Shown: positions 1 to 30,116 of the stretch, piece after piece | Layout of the letters: each line of letters begins with the position of its first letter | Numbering within the stretch: the first letter of the stretch is position 1 | DNA from: Candidatus Scalindua sp. | GTDB lineage: Bacteria > Planctomycetota > Brocadiia > Brocadiales > Scalinduaceae | Reading direction: 5' to 3' | NCBI GenBank assembly: GCA_031316235.1 | Contig: JALDRA010000001.1 | Location: 3,390,001-3,422,000 of the forward strand | Length of the DNA: 32,000 nt | Notes under the pieces: generated by a model | Database searches by the model: none | The model's input: the letters and a program-made list of their open reading frames with translations, nothing else | What the model was told of the DNA's origin: nothing | Made by a program: the position numbers and the translations under genes

Positions 1-90
1 GATAAAATCCGAGAGAAAAAAATGAGCAAGGATACCATTAACCAGGCTCTGGTTTTAAGAAAAATATAAAACCAGATCGGTTTTAGTATA
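1..90 (+). mobile_element. MITE-like structured repeat, copy 1 (5' end cut by window edge; diverged)
   Basis: It aligns to copies 2-4 from GATAAAATCCGAG through AAAACCAGATCGGTTTTAGTATA. The right terminus AGTA+TA lies at 87-90. Confidence 0.75.
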
Positions 91-544
91 TTTGCCGTAA
101 GTTTCCCTGTGTTGATTCAAGCAACTCTTCTGTGCCGAAGAAAAGTGCAATTTCTCTCTCTGCGGATTCAGGAGAGTCTGACCCGTGTGCCAGGTTATAT
201 CGATTGCTTAATCCAAAATCTCCTCGTATAGTTCCCGGAGCTGCCAGATGGCAGGCTGTTTTTCCCAACATGGTGCGGGTAACTTCTATGGCGTTGGTAC
301 CTCTGATTACCAGGGCTACTATGGGGCCTGATGTCATAAATTCTATAAGTTTTTCAAAAAATTCTTTTCCTTCATGAGCAGAATACGTCTCTCTTGCCAC
401 GCTTTGAGAGAGGAGAAGTAGTTTGAGACCGAGTATTTCAAGCCCCTTTTCCTCAAACCGGGTGATTATTTTTCCAATTAGTCTGCGTTGTACCGAATCC
501 GGTTTAATGATGACTAATGTTTTTTGCAAGGTCGGCTCATTCAT
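83..544 (-). CDS. ndk: nucleoside-diphosphate kinase
   Basis: 153-aa ORF with NDK hallmarks: LVIIKPD, FMTSGPIVALV, PGTIRGDF and NLAHGSDS (active-site His region). The last codons (TAC TAA) are supplied by the end of repeat copy 1. Confidence 0.93.
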   Translation of the reverse strand: MNEPTLQKTLVIIKPDSVQRRLIGKIITRFEEKGLEILGLKLLLLSQSVARETYSAHEGKEFFEKLIEFMTSGPIVALVIRGTNAIEVTRTMLGKTACHLAAPGTIRGDFGLSNRYNLAHGSDSPESAEREIALFFGTEELLESTQGNLRQIY

Positions 545-4097: not shown

Positions 4098-4529
4098 ATG
4101 AAGAGAAAAAATGTTTTTATAGCATGTGTTTTCGCATTATCGTTGTTCGTGACAGGTACAGCAGTTAGTTATGGCGCTACAGATCAGGAAATCTGTAAAG
4201 AGAGCAAGAAACATTTTGATGCAATTGTGAGAAATAACGGATTATTACCTGGTGATGAGTTTAATCCGTACAATTTTAAAGAAGTAGCAAATGCTGCAAC
4301 TGCAATGTTGGCGAACGAAAAAAAACGTGCTCCTGGAGACAAAAACAGAACCGCTCTCATCAGGTTGGTATCGATACACATTGAGAATATAGAAAAAGCA
4401 GCGAAAGATGCTGGTGATGGAGCAGTTGAAGCTGCAGGTCACTCTTTGAGGTTTTTGACTCTCTCCTGCAAAGCGTGTCACAAAGTATATGAAACTGAAT
4501 CTCAGAACAGAAGCATGACACCAAAATAA
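4098..4529 (+). CDS. secreted monohaem cytochrome c, class II-like (C-terminal CxxCH)
   Basis: AAGGAGG lies upstream of the ATG and there is a signal peptide (MKRKNVFIACVFALSLFVTGTAVSYG). A single CKACH sits near the C-terminus. The architecture parallels the ORF at 3323-3808. Confidence 0.7.
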   Translation: MKRKNVFIACVFALSLFVTGTAVSYGATDQEICKESKKHFDAIVRNNGLLPGDEFNPYNFKEVANAATAMLANEKKRAPGDKNRTALIRLVSIHIENIEKAAKDAGDGAVEAAGHSLRFLTLSCKACHKVYETESQNRSMTPK

Positions 4530-5181: not shown

Positions 5182-6294
5182 TTAACCCTTGTGCTGATTC
5201 AAAATTACCCTGTTATAAAGCGTATCTCTTTCGACTGGTTCGTGCCCGGTTTCTTCTATTAACGATCTGATTTGATCAACCGTTAATGACTCTGGTGTTT
5301 TCGCACCGGCAGAATGGGTTATTTTTTCTTCAATAACTGTTCCGTCAATATCGTCAACTCCGAAATTAAGGGAGACCTGAGCTAGTTTAATTCCCAGCAT
5401 AATCCAATAGGCCTTGATATGGTCAAAATTGTCGAGCATTAGTCTGCCGATTGCAAGCATCTTAAGATCTAAGATTCCTTGTGTCCCGGACAAGCCGTGC
5501 AGTTCAGTATTTTTGGGATGAAATGCAAGGGGGATAAACGACATAAATCCCTTCGTCTCGTCTTGAAGTGCACGCAACTGCAACAGGTGATTAACCCTGT
5601 CTTCATCTTTTTCTATATGGCCGTATAGCAGGGTTGCGTTACTCCGCAGCCCTAGATTGTGGGCCTCGCGCATTGTTTTTAACCAGATCTCACCGCTGAT
5701 TTTTTCTGGACAAAGTTCATTTCTGATGTGTGGTGCAAAAATTTCAGCTCCTCCACCGGGGAGTGAACCGAGTCCCGCATTCTTTAATAATCTTAGTATT
5801 TCTGTTGTTGTCGTTCCTCTCATTTGGGCAAAATGAACAATTTCAACAGCGGTAAATGCCTTTAAGTGTACCTTGGGAAAGCAATCGTGAAGAGATTCAA
5901 TCAAGGTAAGGTAATAATCAAGTTTGATATCAGGATGGAGACCTCCAACAATATGTAATTCGGTGGCACCTTCTTCAATGATCTGCCTGGCCTTCTCCCG
6001 TATCTCGTCAATACTCAGGAGGAAGGCATCGTTATTCTCCTGAGTACGGCTGAATGCACAAAATTTACAGCTGTTTTTGCAGATATTTGTATAGTTAATG
6101 TGGCGATTTATTACATAATAGGCGTAATTTTTATTTAACCTTTCTCTTACAATGTTTGCAAGATACCCAATGGTGAGAATTTCTTCAGACGCAAACAATC
6201 GCAGGCCATCCTCATACTCAAGACGTTTTTTGTCCATGATCTTTTCATATATATCTGAGAGGTCTGTGCTGGTCGGGATCTTAGTTAATGGCAT
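5182..6294 (-). CDS. mqnE: menaquinone (futalosine pathway) radical SAM enzyme, MqnE/MqnC family; aminofutalosine synthase-like
   Basis: 370 aa with HINYTNICKNSCKFCAF (CxxxCxxC). The overall length and layout fit the MqnE/MqnC family. The FSR following the cluster and the A-F/Y-x-L-S pattern lean toward MqnE, but MqnC is not excluded. Confidence 0.7.
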   Translation of the reverse strand: MPLTKIPTSTDLSDIYEKIMDKKRLEYEDGLRLFASEEILTIGYLANIVRERLNKNYAYYVINRHINYTNICKNSCKFCAFSRTQENNDAFLLSIDEIREKARQIIEEGATELHIVGGLHPDIKLDYYLTLIESLHDCFPKVHLKAFTAVEIVHFAQMRGTTTTEILRLLKNAGLGSLPGGGAEIFAPHIRNELCPEKISGEIWLKTMREAHNLGLRSNATLLYGHIEKDEDRVNHLLQLRALQDETKGFMSFIPLAFHPKNTELHGLSGTQGILDLKMLAIGRLMLDNFDHIKAYWIMLGIKLAQVSLNFGVDDIDGTVIEEKITHSAGAKTPESLTVDQIRSLIEETGHEPVERDTLYNRVILNQHKG

Positions 6295-8384: not shown

Positions 8385-8548
8385 TATACTCATCTCATAC
8401 TGGATTTCGGATAAAATCCGAGATAACATTGAGTGAGTAAGGTCCTCGACGTCTAATCCGGGGAAAGTCTTCGGCGCTTTTTGTCCGGGGATACCTTCAC
8501 CAGGATCTGGTTTCCGGCAAGACCGAAAACCAGATCGGTTTTAGTATA
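8385..8548 (+). mobile_element. MITE-like structured repeat, copy 2 (long form with an inserted block of about 52 nt)
   Basis: TATACTCATCTCATACTGGATTTCGGATAAAATCCGAG ... ATCTGGTTTCCGGCAAGACCGAAAACCAGATCGGTTTTAGTATA. The extra block at about 8440-8491 consists of two related units of about 26 nt. Confidence 0.85.
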
Positions 8549-12272: not shown

Positions 12273-12384
12273 TATACTCATCTCATACTGGATTTCGGAT
12301 AAAATCCGAGATAAAATTGAGCGAGTATACCTTCACCAAGATTTGGTTTCCGGTAAAACCGAAAACCAAATCGGTTTTAGTATA
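12273..12384 (+). mobile_element. MITE-like structured repeat, copy 3 (112-nt short form, used here as the type copy)
   Basis: TA-TACTCATCTCATACTGGATTTCGG ... CCGAAAACCAAATCGGTTTTAGTA-TA. It has a left hairpin TCGGAT-AAA-ATCCGA and a right hairpin of about 13 bp. Confidence 0.88.
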
Positions 12385-12445: not shown

Positions 12446-13300
12446 ATGAATGAAGAACTTTCCAAAAGGGGGCCATTTAAGAGTATTCTTTATTTTCCTC
12501 TCTTTTTTGACATACCCCTCATAAATATTTTTCTTTTTGTTGTCACAATATTTTCTACGTACTATATCAATGGACTTAGTTATGCAGTTTCTATTATCAT
12601 TATTCTGCTTGCGCATGAAATGGGACATTTCATCATGTGCAGAAAATATCATGTAGATGCAACATGGCCGTACTTTATTCCATTTCCTTCTCTCTTTGGT
12701 ACACTGGGCGCCGTTATCAGGATGAAGGGGCATATACCTGACAAGCGTGCCCTGTTTGATATTGGGGTTGCCGGCCCCATCGGAGGCTTAATCTTTGCAA
12801 TCCCGGTTACCATAATAGGACTCTCTCTTTCAGAGGTGCATCCTGTCCCGCAAACTGCAACAGGTTACATCGGATTGGGAGAACCTATACTCTTTTCCTT
12901 TTTTTCAAAGATGTTGATTGGAGAGGTTTCACCGGGATACGATATTTACCTGAGTCCCGTTGCCTTTGCAGGATGGGCAGGCCTGTTTATCACAGCCCTC
13001 AATCTCCTTCCCCTGGGACAGCTTGATGGTGGGCATGTTATTTATGCAATGTTGGGGGAACACAGTACAAAAGTGTACAAGACAGGTATTTTACTATTTT
13101 GTCTTTTTACCATTTATCTTATTGTTCGATATCATAATCCTGTCTGGTTTGTCTTTGCGATTATGCTTTTATTTATCGGTTTTAAACATCCCCCACCAAT
13201 TGATCCGTATACACAGCTGGATTTCAAGCGTAAGTGCATCGGTGTTCTGATGCTCGTTATCTTTTTGCTGTCTTTTACGCCAATCCCCCTCAAGTTTTGA
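12446..13300 (+). CDS. M50-family site-2 metalloprotease (membrane protein)
   Basis: 284 aa, polytopic, with HEMGH (HExxH) and the second motif NLLPLGQLDGGH. Confidence 0.88.
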   Translation: MNEELSKRGPFKSILYFPLFFDIPLINIFLFVVTIFSTYYINGLSYAVSIIIILLAHEMGHFIMCRKYHVDATWPYFIPFPSLFGTLGAVIRMKGHIPDKRALFDIGVAGPIGGLIFAIPVTIIGLSLSEVHPVPQTATGYIGLGEPILFSFFSKMLIGEVSPGYDIYLSPVAFAGWAGLFITALNLLPLGQLDGGHVIYAMLGEHSTKVYKTGILLFCLFTIYLIVRYHNPVWFVFAIMLLFIGFKHPPPIDPYTQLDFKRKCIGVLMLVIFLLSFTPIPLKF

Positions 13301-13321
13301 AATGAGTTTTGTCTGTTTTCT

Positions 13322-13366
13322 GTGACTAGGGTGCAGGAAAAAACAACTTGTTGTTCACGCCTGGGC
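13322..13366 (+). repeat. 45-nt hairpin repeat, copy A
   Basis: GTGACTAGGGTGCAGGAAAAAACAACTTGTTGTTCACGCCTGGGC matches the reverse complement of 18849-18893 at about 38 of 45 positions. Confidence 0.7.
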
Positions 13367-13444
13367 CCTTAGTCTCCAAGCCAACATTTTCCTGCTCTTT
13401 TTGACGGGAGATTGTCACCTGAGAGGCGGTAGCTGCGTTTTTTC

Positions 13445-13556
13445 TCTACTCATCTCATACTGGATTTCGGATAAAATCCGAGATAACTTTGAGCGAGTAT
13501 ACCTTCACCAGGATTTGGTTTCGGGTAAAAACGAAAACCAGATTGGTTTTAGTATC
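13445..13556 (+). mobile_element. MITE-like structured repeat, copy 4 (short form, flanked by TC instead of TA)
   Basis: Same sequence as copy 3 with a few substitutions. The dinucleotide on both sides of TACT...AGTA is TC. Confidence 0.85.
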
Positions 13557-13616
13557 TGAGTGTGTTCGTTAGTATGTTTCTACTTTTATAGGTACGGCGG
13601 TAAGTGATAAAAGGCA

Positions 13617-16681: not shown

Positions 16682-16686
16682 TATTA

Positions 16687-16798
16687 TATACTCATCTTAT
16701 AATGGTTTTCGGTTTTACCGGAAATAAAATCTTGGTGAAGGTATACTCGCTCAATTTTAACTCGGATTTTATCCGAAAACCATTACGAGATGAGTATA
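16687..16798 (-). mobile_element. MITE-like structured repeat, copy 5 (112 nt, TIR subtype)
   Basis: The termini TATACTCATCTTATAATGGTTTTCGG and CCGAAAACCATTACGAGATGAGTATA form a 24/26 inverted repeat. The internal sequence is the reverse complement of copy 3. Confidence 0.88.
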
Positions 16799-16799
16799 C

Positions 16800-17882: not shown

Positions 17883-17918
17883 TGTTTGAAAGAAAACTGC
17901 CCATCTACTGCGTTGCTG

Positions 17919-17972
17919 TAATAATTCCGTAATCCTCACGTACTTGAGTACGTTCCGGTTACGCAATTATTA
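17919..17972. repeat. 54-nt bipartite imperfect palindrome (structured element downstream of the oxidoreductase gene)
   Basis: The outer arms TAATAATTCCGTAATCC / GGTTACGCAATTATTA pair at 14 of 16 positions, counting one G-T. The inner stem ACGTACT/AGTACGT is perfect. No T-run follows. Confidence 0.6.
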
Positions 17973-17997
17973 CGCGCCTTGTACCTGGACGGTTTTC

Positions 17998-18110
17998 GTT
18001 CAAACACAGGGTCTCTGTTCAAACACAGAGGCACTGTTCAAGCACTCTATATTTCTAAAGAGTGGGCAGTGGGCAATAAACAGTTGACAGTTAGCAGTTG
18101 GCAGTTGACA
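17998..18110. repeat. cluster of short tandem repeats (19-mer x2.5; heptamers AGTGGGC x2 and CAGTTGR-type x4)
   Basis: GTTCAAACACAGGGTCTCT / GTTCAAACACAGAGGCACT / GTTCAAGCACT at 17998-18046. AGTGGGCAGTGGGC at 18061-18074. ACAGTTG ACAGTTA GCAGTTG GCAGTTG ACA at 18080-18110. Confidence 0.85.
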
Positions 18111-18811: not shown

Positions 18812-18849
18812 CCATGAGATTAGGAATTGCTAATTCCCTAATCTCATGG
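18812..18849. repeat. 38-nt near-perfect palindrome flanked by an 8-nt direct repeat CCAGGAAA
   Basis: CCATGAGATTAGGAATT-GCT-AATTCCCTAATCTCATGG. CCAGGAAA occurs at 18804-18811 and 18851-18858. Confidence 0.7.
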
Positions 18850-18893
18850 CCCAGGAAAGAACAACAAGTTGTTTTTTCCTGGGCCCTAAACAC
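18849..18893 (-). repeat. 45-nt hairpin repeat, copy B
   Basis: GCCCAGGAAAGAACAAC-AA-GTTGTTTTTTCCTGGGC forms a long stem. It is the reverse complement of the element at 13322-13366. Confidence 0.7.
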
Positions 18894-18982
18894 ATCTCGT
18901 CTCTTAATAGACACTCTCTACCTCTGCCGAAACTTACTCAATTAATCTCTAAAAATAAAAAAACATGACAGGTATAATATCA

Positions 18983-19447: not shown

Positions 19448-19720
19448 ATGGAATTTGAATGGGATAAAAAAAAAGCAGCATCAAATGAAATAAAACATGG
19501 TGTCTCATTTCAAGAGGCTGGTACAATATTTGGTGATCCATTAGCTTTAACATACAATGATCCAGATCACTCAATTAACGAAAATCGATATATTACTTTT
19601 GGAATTTCAAGACTGGGCAAGAACTTGGTAGTGTCCCATACTGAGCGTGGCGATAAAACCAGGATCATTAGTGCTCGCCAAATGACAAAGAATGAAAGGA
19701 CAATATATGAAGAAGGTTAA
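19448..19720 (+). CDS. brnT: BrnT-family (DUF497) type II toxin
   Basis: 90 aa with FEWDKKKAASNEIKHGVSFQEA..FGDP..DPDHS..E.R..T.G....L.VVSHTERG.KTRIISARQMTKNE, the typical BrnT pattern. Confidence 0.85.
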   Translation: MEFEWDKKKAASNEIKHGVSFQEAGTIFGDPLALTYNDPDHSINENRYITFGISRLGKNLVVSHTERGDKTRIISARQMTKNERTIYEEG

Positions 19721-19937
19721 AAAGGAAGATGAATTAAAACCTGAATACAAGAGATCAGAGCTAGGCAAAGGGGTCAGAGGAAAATATTATGAGTCATATA
19801 AATCCTCACATAACCTTGTTCTTCTCAATCCGGAAGTTGCAAGCGCTTTCCCGACTGAGCAGGCAGTAAATAAGGCACTTATGTCATTAATTGCCAAATC
19901 TAAAACAGCAAAAACCCTAACAAAAAAATCCAGTTGA
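19707..19937 (+). CDS. putative antitoxin partner of BrnT
   Basis: Small ORF overlapping the toxin stop, with AAAGGA 6 nt before the ATG. It has the motif ELKPEY.RSELGKGVRGKY seen in small antitoxin-type proteins. Family assignment is tentative. Confidence 0.6.
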   Translation: MKKVKKEDELKPEYKRSELGKGVRGKYYESYKSSHNLVLLNPEVASAFPTEQAVNKALMSLIAKSKTAKTLTKKSS

Positions 19938-20047
19938 CCAGAAATGTGATATTTTTTTTGTCGGAATAGGGCTGCAAAAAAACGGTTTCAAGTCTATCAG
20001 AGCCAATTTTCATGTCTATTTCCACCAACTGATTTAAAACGTTATAC
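19915..20047 (+). other. candidate integron attC site (133 bp) of the brnT/antitoxin cassette
   Basis: R'' is CCCTAAC (19915-21), followed by a 4-nt spacer. L'' is AAATC[C]AGTTG (19926-36, with an extra C). L' is CAACTGATTT (20026-35), followed by a 5-nt spacer and R' G|TTATAC (20041-47). R'' is the exact reverse complement of GTTAGGG at the cassette start. Confidence 0.75.
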
Positions 20048-20076
20048 CATGGAAATAAAAAACAACGGAGTATTCA

Positions 20077-20373
20077 ATGTCATATGAATCGCAAAGCATC
20101 AGGGATGCTATTGAGGAAGTTAATAGGACATACTTCCTGCCAGCGATACAAAGAGAGTTCGTTTGGGACACATATCGCGTAGAAAAGCTGTTTGATTCAA
20201 TAATGGGTGATTATCCGATTAGCTCATTTTTGTTCTGGAAAGTTAGAGAAGAAAATAAGAAGGACTGGGCTTCTTATGAATTCATCAGAAATTTTGACCA
20301 AGACGCCCCACACAACATTTACACTGAACTATCTGGAATCAACAAAGACATATACCTTATTTTATGGCCATAA
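20077..20373 (+). pseudogene. DUF262 (GmrSD/ParB-like nuclease N-terminal domain) gene, truncated after about 98 codons
   Basis: YFLPAIQREFVW, LFDSIMGDYPISSFLFW is the N-terminal DUF262 signature. The frame stops just where the conserved DGQQR motif would be expected. Full-length family members are several-fold longer. Confidence 0.7.
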
Positions 20374-20475
20374 AAATAAGCAAGTAGAACCGCTACTCAA
20401 CCATACCGCGGGATACGTGGTTTAATTTTAAAACTAAATTCTTGTGCGGCTTATCAAGGGTGTCGTTATTTGTCT

Positions 20476-21228
20476 ATGAAAATAGTCTCTTGGAACTGTA
20501 ACGGGGCTTTAAGAAAAAAGACCCAAGAAGTAGATAAGCTTGATGCAGATATTATTATTATACAAGAATGCGAAGATCCTGCCTTGTCAACAAAAGATTA
20601 TCAAAATTGGGCTGGAGACTATTTGTGGGTCGGTGACTCAAATCATAAGGAAATCTGTGTATTTCCTAAAAACAATAATGAAGTAAAACGCCTGGACTGG
20701 TATGGAGAATTTGAAATAGAAGGCTTGAGTAGTCATAGCTCTTCTATAAAGTGGACAACTTATGATTTAAAGTTGTTTCTTCCTTGTAAAGTAAACGAAA
20801 GCTTTAATATTTTAGGCGTTTGGACAAAGGGTACAGATTCAGAAGTCTTTGGATATATTGGCCAGTTCTGGAAATTCCTTCAAATTCACAAAAAGAATCT
20901 ATCGACAAGTAGGCAAATAATTATAGGGGATTTTAATAGTAACAAAATATGGGACAAAGCTGATAGATGGTGGAACCACTCAGATGTAGTTTGTGAATTG
21001 AACGATATCGGCCTTATAAGCTTATTTCATCACCAACACGTTGAAAATCAAGGGAAAGAGTCTATTCCTACGTTCTTCATGCACAGAAAAAAAGAAAAAT
21101 CATATCATATTGATTATGCATTTATATCAACTGATTTTGTAAATAGCAGTAATATTGAAATTGGTGGAAAGGAAAGTTGGCTATCATTAAGTGATCATAT
21201 GCCAATAAGCGTGACTTTAAACAGTTAG
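20476..21228 (+). CDS. endonuclease/exonuclease/phosphatase (EEP) family protein
   Basis: MKIVSWNCNG.., IIIIQECE, IIGDFNS, and SDHMPISVTL at the C-terminus are the classic EEP/ExoIII-like motifs. I prefer the ATG at 20476 over the TTG at 20470. Confidence 0.85.
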   Translation: MKIVSWNCNGALRKKTQEVDKLDADIIIIQECEDPALSTKDYQNWAGDYLWVGDSNHKEICVFPKNNNEVKRLDWYGEFEIEGLSSHSSSIKWTTYDLKLFLPCKVNESFNILGVWTKGTDSEVFGYIGQFWKFLQIHKKNLSTSRQIIIGDFNSNKIWDKADRWWNHSDVVCELNDIGLISLFHHQHVENQGKESIPTFFMHRKKEKSYHIDYAFISTDFVNSSNIEIGGKESWLSLSDHMPISVTLNS

Positions 21229-26356: not shown

Positions 26357-26403
26357 GTGTTTTTTCTCGTATTTCATCCGAAAACCATTATAAGATGAGT
26401 ATA
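26357..26403 (-). mobile_element. MITE-like structured repeat, copy 6 (one-end fragment)
   Basis: CTCGTATTTCATCCGAAAACCATTATAAGATGAGTATA matches the reverse complement of the left end of the family. The rest of the element is missing. Confidence 0.7.
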
Positions 26404-29948: not shown

Positions 29949-30116
29949 TATATGTCAAAACCAGACCGGTTTTTGGGTTTTCTAAAAAGCAAAGCCTGGC
30001 TGCTGGTATCCCCGGACAAAAAATGCCGAGGACTTTCCCCGGACAAAAGGTGTCGAGGATTTTGATCGCTCCGTTTTTTCTCAGATTTTTTTCGAAAACA
30101 TTATAAGATGAGTATA
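29949..30116 (-). mobile_element. MITE-like structured repeat, copy 7 (long form, diverged)
   Basis: It ends ..TTCGAAAACATTATAAGATGAGTATA. It contains two tandem 27-nt units, CCCCGGACAAAAAATGCCGAGGACTTT (30010-36) and CCCCGGACAAAAGGTGTCGAGGATTTT (30037-63). These are homologous to the reverse complement of the extra block in copy 2. Confidence 0.75.

Follow-up and report, generated by a model that had tools for sequence, protein, structure and literature searches.

A short, hairpin-rich repeat occurs seven times in the 32-kb stretch of DNA analysed here (the window), which comes from Candidatus Scalindua, a genus of marine anammox bacteria. What kind of element is it, how did it reach so many sites, and does the host make use of it? 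We consider the repeat very probably a selfish MITE that duplicates a TA on insertion; a DDE transposase of the IS630/Tc1-mariner type most likely moves it in trans.

Copies in the window and their architecture

The earlier note had counted seven copies in the window. Repeat detection, an alignment of the seven copies and an nhmmer profile recovered all of them at the same positions and no others in the 32 kb: three copies of 112 nt, two variants of ~165 nt, one copy cut by the window edge and one half copy. The degenerate 24-nt pattern of the L terminus, TACTCATCTYRTAMTGGWTTTCGG, matches the window six times, compared with 0.00 matches expected from 100 shuffles. Reading and aligning the copies also confirmed the features originally described, namely, a left end TACTCATCT..TGG(A/T)TTTCGG, a right end CCGAAAACC..AGTA, a left hairpin TCGGAT-AAA-ATCCGA, a conserved middle GAGCGAGTATACCTTCACC, and flanking TA dinucleotides except at 13445-13556, where TC stands on both sides. 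The copies and the parts of the reference copy are as follows.

1-90, plus strand: copy cut by the window edge (nhmmer 1-89)
8385-8548, plus strand: long variant of 164 nt in the dprA-aroB spacer, in which the internal GC-rich module B is doubled (nhmmer 8385-8547)
12273-12384, plus strand: reference full-length copy, L..R type, 112 nt including the TA on each side (nhmmer 12273-12383)
12273-12274: left TA of the duplicated target of the reference copy
12275-12298, plus strand: L terminus TACTCATCTCATACTGGATTTCGG (family consensus TACTCATCTCATAATGGTTTTCGG)
12292-12312, plus strand: left hairpin ATTTCGGAT-AAA-ATCCGAGAT, the loop of which is insertion site 1, for a GC-rich module
12319-12329, plus strand: GAGCGAGTATA, an internal inverted copy of the outer L terminus that closes the left stem-loop domain
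12340-12372, plus strand: right hairpin GATTTGGTTTCCGG-TAAAA-CCGAAAACCAAATC, the loop of which is insertion site 3, for GC-rich modules
12359-12382, plus strand: R terminus CCGAAAACCAAATCGGTTTTAGTA of the reference copy
12383-12384: right TA of the duplicated target of the reference copy
13445-13556, plus strand: full-length 112-nt copy with TC/TC flanks, a concordant non-TA duplication (nhmmer 13446-13555)
16687-16798, minus strand: full-length 112-nt copy, L..L type, with TA/TA flanks (nhmmer 16688-16797)
26357-26403, minus strand: solo left half, with the L terminus at 26378-26401 and TA at 26402-26403 (nhmmer 26360-26403)
29949-30116, minus strand: degenerate long variant with two module-B units and a diverged R end (nhmmer 29957-30116, in two segments)

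A copy is non-coding and has termini of 24 nt each, L and R; between them, a short core separates a left hairpin from a right hairpin. With the flanking TA, the constant termini read TA-TACTCATCTCATAATGGTTTTCGG on the left and CCGAAAACCAAATCGGTTTTAGTA-TA on the right. The L terminus and the reverse complement of the R terminus have the outer TACT and the inner TGGTTTTCGG in common and agree at 14 of 24 positions. Terminal inverted repeats (TIRs) are thus present, and in L..L copies such as 16687-16798, which has an L-type terminus at both ends, the TIR is 26 nt long and near perfect. Optional GC-rich hairpin modules at three fixed internal positions give rise to length classes of ~53, 87, 108, 128, 135, 143, 160, 166, 174, 190, 198 and 221 nt; module B of the longer variants is inserted directly after GAGCGAGTA. 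Copy lengths span 53 to 226 nt, and the ORFs that span copies are short and spurious-looking. The minimal 53-nt copies are composed of an L terminus, TAAAA and an R terminus and nothing else. As RNA, the reference copy has a predicted folding energy of -38.5 kcal/mol (z = -6.6), the predicted fold of the standard 112-nt copy comprises two independent stem-loop domains, and that of the L..L copy at 16687-16798 runs from end to end (z -7.9 to -9.2).

The window contains housekeeping genes as well as c-type cytochrome and Rieske proteins. ORF 12446-13300 has an M50 peptidase domain, and the remaining large ORFs, assigned by eye, are presumably ndk, proS, ridA, aroB, folC and pyk. The copies had been described as lying only in intergenic DNA and often filling it completely. 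The first description is nearly accurate, the exception being copy 1-90, which overlaps the last codon and stop of ndk; the second is clear for one spacer only, 16682-16799 between an alanine symporter gene and an FAD-oxidoreductase gene, which copy 16687-16798 occupies entirely. The ndk gene (83-544, minus strand) ends within copy 1-90: the outer bases of the R terminus serve as its final codon (TAC) and its stop (TAA), which indicates that its original 3' end was replaced on insertion.

The same window holds other repeats and an accessory island. A second palindromic repeat family of ~106 nt is represented at 17883-18006 and has 58 BLAST matches in the ~970-kb sample described below. A third small palindromic repeat, GGGCCCAGG..AACAACAAGTTGTT..CCTGGGCCC, occurs in inverted orientation at 13321-13372 and 18843-18894 and has 13 to 24 matches in the sample; about half of spacer 13301-13616 consists of this repeat and the MITE. 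The accessory island (19448-21228) lies amid housekeeping genes and encodes a BrnT-family toxin (19448-19720), a GmrSD N-terminal fragment (20077-20373) and an endonuclease/exonuclease/phosphatase-family protein (20470-21228).

Target-site duplication and insertion history

An exact-pattern scan of one genome per species found at least 120 stretches with the element; among the matches listed, all stretches belong to Candidatus Scalindua sp. SCAELEC01, Scalindua sp. RBC_AMX3 and one Scalinduaceae MAG. The sample that was assembled consists of the window and 938 kb of loci from three other Scalindua(ceae) genomes (~970 kb); its loci are 8-kb blocks picked for containing the MITE, and the sample is partial and biased. 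In it, nhmmer found 193 non-overlapping matches and 136 full-length copies, window included, with 184 of the matches lying beyond the window in the 938 kb from the three genomes; all of these counts are lower bounds. Further copies, the lack of which would have refuted the reading in the earlier note, are therefore numerous, and two genomes hold at least 53 and at least 79 full copies. A terminus search of the ~970 kb recovered 190 L-type and 148 R-type termini, which pair into 138 L..R and 2 L..L elements and leave 58 solo ends. The window is 78 to 89% identical to syntenic SCAELEC01 loci and is thus from a fourth Scalindua species. Viral contigs contained no match to the element, and JGI metagenome contigs contained five, with no new element type among them; the terminus variant specific to the window had no match in metagenome contigs. 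The M50 peptidase of the window was matched exactly by one other contig (Logan, 1.1 kb), with flanks of 86 and 176 bases.

A 2-bp target-site duplication had been proposed from the window, with the TC/TC copy as the case that it predicts. At additional copies the flanking dinucleotides are duplicated as well: TA stands on both sides of 126 of 140 copies. TA accounts for 8% of intergenic dinucleotides, so that ~0.7% of copies would be expected to have TA on both sides by chance. The TC/TC copy of the window has the sole concordant non-TA flank pair among the 140. This is what a duplication predicts, since a dinucleotide owned by the element would need two parallel mutations; as far as sequence can tell, it is only at this copy that a TA duplication would be separated from a TA-carrying element inserted beside a TA. 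The target context is weakly A-TA-T.

Empty sites were sought by joining the flanks of each copy and matching them against the other sampled sequences. Seven independent empty sites were found, each an uninterrupted homologue with a single TA exactly where the filled site has TA-element-TA. Three are nested in other repeat families: locus L063 is a copy of the ~106-nt family (the one with a copy at 17901-18006 in the window, within 17883-18006) interrupted by the MITE, and L053/L116 and L008 are nested in a repeat family other than that of L063. One is orthologous, with L042 of SCAELEC01 filled and L025 of RBC_AMX3 empty, and three are paralogous (L087/L065, L023/L112 and L024/L061). The single TA in all seven indicates a 2-bp TA target-site duplication, which is thus supported by both the flanks and the empty sites, and the latter demonstrate that the repeat is an insertion and not ancestral conserved DNA. 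A 3-bp duplication, also considered, does not fit, since it would make the reconstructed empty site of L063 2 nt longer than it should be.

Within the sample, MITE copies identical along with their flanks lie on different RBC_AMX3 contigs, inside another repeat family (L053 5567-5702 and L116 3584-3719). This suggests that the host repeat moved or was duplicated after gaining the MITE.

Many copies are dispersed and show presence/absence polymorphism, as at L042/L025 and in the dprA-aroB spacer, and identical 108-nt copies are found at different loci. In the dprA-aroB spacer, the window has its 164-nt copy on the plus strand, whereas SCAELEC01 has a 112-nt copy on the minus strand at a different position; this difference between species indicates that insertion continued after speciation. 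At the SCAELEC01 loci L049 and L080, the window spacers barely align, as they are too diverged at ~85% coding identity. The identical copies and the dprA-aroB difference show that the element has been active since the sampled species diverged. RBC_AMX3 and SCAELEC01 copies are ~91% identical over their whole length (maximum, 98%), compared with ~78 to 80% for flanking DNA, as aligned at two orthologous sites. A whole-length identity of ~91% is beyond what transposase binding at the ends alone accounts for.

Placement, predicted folds and host function

Could the copies instead be structured elements that the host has selected, whether as bidirectional terminators, mRNA-stabilising 3' hairpins, protein-binding sites or small-RNA genes, and that are transposon-like in looks only? 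Several observations would suit such a role. Folding is predicted to be very stable (-38 to -43 kcal/mol, z -6.6 to -9.2), the whole-length identity between species exceeds that of the surrounding DNA, and some copies lie within a few bases of gene ends, as do 16687-16798 and 1-90 in the window. A function as terminators, UTR structures or small-RNA sources had also been suggested from the window.

The placement of the copies argues against host selection. Based on crude greedy ORF calls on all loci, which are heuristic, tandem, divergent and convergent spacers hold 77, 25 and 11 copies versus 441, 115 and 100 spacers in the background (chi-square p ~0.16), so that the use of spacer types follows the background. 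Orientation in tandem spacers is likewise unbiased (45 versus 32; binomial p ~0.17). Eleven copies appeared to lie inside an ORF; most of these ORFs are short and seem to be made by the element or to result from over-extended starts. Insertion is thus shown to be essentially random within intergenic DNA and to occur in either orientation.

The structural searches gave no support to a host role either. Promoter- and terminator-like sites occurred at the level of shuffles, with no enrichment, and the short copies had no stem-plus-U-tract signature. No Rfam family matched at the gathering threshold; the best weak match reached 23.5 bits against a threshold of 100 (E 0.77) and is at chance level. 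Of the cells, 91% are paired, but covariation stood at 0.044 versus 0.048 for shuffled controls, and the majority of pairs are invariant; the great uniformity of the copies explains why the controls are not exceeded. Moreover, presence/absence polymorphism, truncated halves and nesting in other repeats are the behaviour of a parasite. There is no sign that the host uses the element, and we regard host-selected structure as an improbable account of the family. Intergenic and unbiased placement, together with the lack of Rfam and terminator signals in these analyses, points to a selfish MITE.

Probable transposase type, nested elements and similar known elements

As the earlier note had stated, the window encodes no transposase, a result borne out by Pfam scans of 20 of its ORFs. 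The note had also proposed a search for an autonomous insertion sequence with matching termini. In the ~970-kb sample of MITE-containing blocks, no autonomous element was found that has such termini and encodes a DDE transposase. Each terminus pair spaced by more than 400 nt (0.4 to 5 kb) proved to be a MITE copy interrupted by an IS110-family gene, and clustering of multi-copy ORFs across the ~970 kb yielded IS110 as the sole multi-copy transposase. The genes beside the 58 solo termini, judged by eye from their first 70 residues, look ordinary. The missing cognate transposase is weak evidence, since the sampled blocks cover the genomes in part and favour DNA that contains the MITE.

A 2-bp TA duplication with a weak A-TA-T context is a hallmark of IS630/Tc1-mariner integration. 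The element was first likened to IS630/Tc1-mariner-derived MITEs; the further copies, the duplicated flanks and the seven empty sites establish the part of this reading that concerns a MITE with a TA duplication, and for the superfamily we infer IS630/Tc1-mariner as the most likely attribution. On this attribution, a DDE transposase of the IS630/Tc1-mariner type would catalyse movement in trans, binding the inner terminal motif TGGTTTTCGG that both ends share and cutting beside the outer TACT. Integration at a TA in a weak A-TA-T context and the duplication of that TA are shown by the flanks and empty sites. The hairpins would be side effects of an inverted-repeat architecture combined with nested palindromic modules, with no host function, and effects on neighbouring genes, such as the copy that supplies the ndk stop codon, would be incidental.

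Inverted matches at 14 of 24 positions make a weaker TIR than that of classic IS630-derived MITEs. This favours a different source of mobility, as does the lack of an IS630-like gene or a matching autonomous element in the ~970 kb: the MITE could be moved by a transposase outside IS630/Tc1-mariner (for example, an undescribed enzyme or one from an IS5-family subgroup whose duplications are very short), or it could now be an orphan without an active transposase in these genomes, as Correia elements are assumed to be. The TIRs of most bacterial MITEs resemble no insertion sequence ends found so far (PMC2229807), which is in keeping with either possibility. However, the duplication is strictly of TA and the A-TA-T context is that of IS630/Tc1-mariner, the presence of identical copies at different loci speaks for recent activity and against a long-dead orphan, and a low-copy autonomous element would easily be missed in 8-kb blocks chosen for the MITE. 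We therefore think another transposase or an orphan MITE unlikely, although this is the alternative to which we give the most weight, and we retain IS630/Tc1-mariner as the preferred attribution.

The IS110-family element (PF01548 plus PF02371) lies at one identical position in MITE module B of four host copies (L071 4442-6275, L120 3150-5007, L009 ~1-1573 and L125 107-1997). Its gene carries a frameshift in two of them, L071 and L120. The sequence across the junction, GGCGC-CT-[IS]-CT-TTTGTCC, fits a CT core and no duplication, and Rfam had no match over the IS110 copy. Since the four MITE copies differ in their flanks and module content, IS110 targets the MITE in a site-specific manner.

The MITE (e.g., L014 6373-6405) contains short GC-rich palindromic units, CCTGCCTGTGCG..CGCAGACAGG and CCCGCCCGGCCTG.., that are also present in at least three unrelated repeat families. 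Sites outside the MITE include L010 ~1793-1830, L058 ~470-505, L108 ~1198-1240, L065 7128-7170, L087 2166-2200, L080 6949 and L114 5687. Within the MITE, the units occupy the loops of both hairpins in one fixed orientation, with CGG(A)/CCAG on one side and TAAAA on the other; they fall into a few subfamilies, mostly of one genome, and represent few independent events. The modules may be independent nested hairpin units. That the MITE is a scaffold of layered nested mobile DNA in Scalindua, carrying hairpin units and IS110, is a tentative idea that we consider doubtful. If the units were hairpins autonomous in trans with a target rule of their own, they would be an unusually clear case of ultra-small mobile hairpins parasitising a MITE, and the ~91% conservation could then reflect horizontal exchange or selection on these landing pads. 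At three places (L008 ~4200-4335, L049 ~1770-1894 and L113 ~6140-6272), an L-type MITE terminus continues into a long palindromic body of another kind, ..GAAATTTAGATTTTTCGATTGAACAA..; these may be a separate family that has the L terminus in common with the MITE.

HUH-type elements lack both target-site duplication and TIRs. This bears on whether the repeat could consist of REP/REPIN- or PATE-like palindromes that a Y1 (HUH) transposase, either RAYT or the TnpA of IS200/IS605, mobilises in the form of single-stranded hairpins. The architecture is hairpin rich and modular, like a BIME mosaic, GC-rich palindromic modules recur across several repeat families, and an IS110-family element targets the repeat as IS110 members target REPs (PMC1525189). 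REP/BIME sequences are, in the same way, modular GC-rich hairpins in intergenic DNA and favoured targets of the IS110 family (PMC1525189, PMC11208160). REPs, however, have neither TIR nor duplication and are linked to RAYT transposases, whereas the Scalindua scaffold has inverted-repeat termini and the TA duplication seen at seven empty sites, and no RAYT or IS200/IS605 gene was found among the multi-copy ORFs of the sample. The Scalindua element is not a REP/REPIN, and movement by a Y1 transposase is very improbable.

All features tested that define a MITE are present in the element, which is small and non-coding, has TIRs, duplicates its target as judged from empty sites, and occurs as dispersed, polymorphic copies. 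Stowaway MITEs, which derive from Tc1/mariner, likewise combine a TA duplication and short TIRs with a strongly folding non-coding body and are moved in trans by mariner-like transposases; unlike the Scalindua element, they are eukaryotic and their cognate transposases are known. Among bacterial MITEs, most have TIRs, a terminal TA and target-site duplications, and binding of a transposase to a MITE is on record (PMC2229807). A close comparison is RUP (repeat unit of pneumococcus), a non-coding, intergenic MITE of ~107 bp that is present on the order of 100 times per genome, has TIRs, inserts at TA with duplication, nests in mobile elements and has a high copy identity that suggests recent mobility, all as in Scalindua (PMC2229807). 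RUP was attributed to IS630-Spn1 on evidence of the same kind as that presented here (PMC2229807), but its termini match that resident element, whereas no cognate insertion sequence was found for the Scalindua element in our sample. The likeness, which implies no sequence relationship, also ends at the two-domain fold, non-identical L and R ends, modular length classes and different host phylum of the Scalindua element.

Correia/NEMIS elements of Neisseria have a TA duplication, TIRs of ~24 to 26 bp, hundreds of intergenic copies and no known transposase, and their two main size classes, with an internal difference of ~50 bp, parallel the 112-nt versus ~138/165-nt copies in Scalindua (PMC2229807). 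In this comparison, which is of architecture only, Correia differs in its IHF site, in documented promoter and RNase III processing functions and in its unrelated host. ERIC/IRU elements similarly form a long imperfect palindrome with a terminal TA and a target-site duplication, and the 5' and 3' halves of CIR fold independently into long stem-loops, comparable to the two-domain fold of the Scalindua element (PMC2229807). Both have proteobacterial hosts; ERIC differs in its 7-bp TIRs and its position in transcribed regions, and CIR differs in having no TIRs and no established duplication.

Full-text literature searches returned no paper that ties Scalindua or anammox bacteria to MITEs, and the main text of a 2024 pan-prokaryote MITE survey mentions neither Scalindua nor Planctomycetes. 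The element is thus of a well-known kind but apparently undescribed in the Scalindua lineage. It adds a TA-duplicating MITE to a phylum with none described in the searched literature, and it represents no new class of mechanism. Scalindua genomes are known almost solely as fragmented metagenome bins, and a repeat as dense as this one (seven copies in a 32-kb window) would account for contig breaks. The repeat needs to be masked or modelled in assembly and annotation, as illustrated by ndk, the annotated end of which is built from it. The family also provides a natural IS110 target sequence that is usable for studies of bridge-RNA targeting in the Scalindua lineage, and its presence/absence insertions are ready strain and species markers for uncultured anammox populations.
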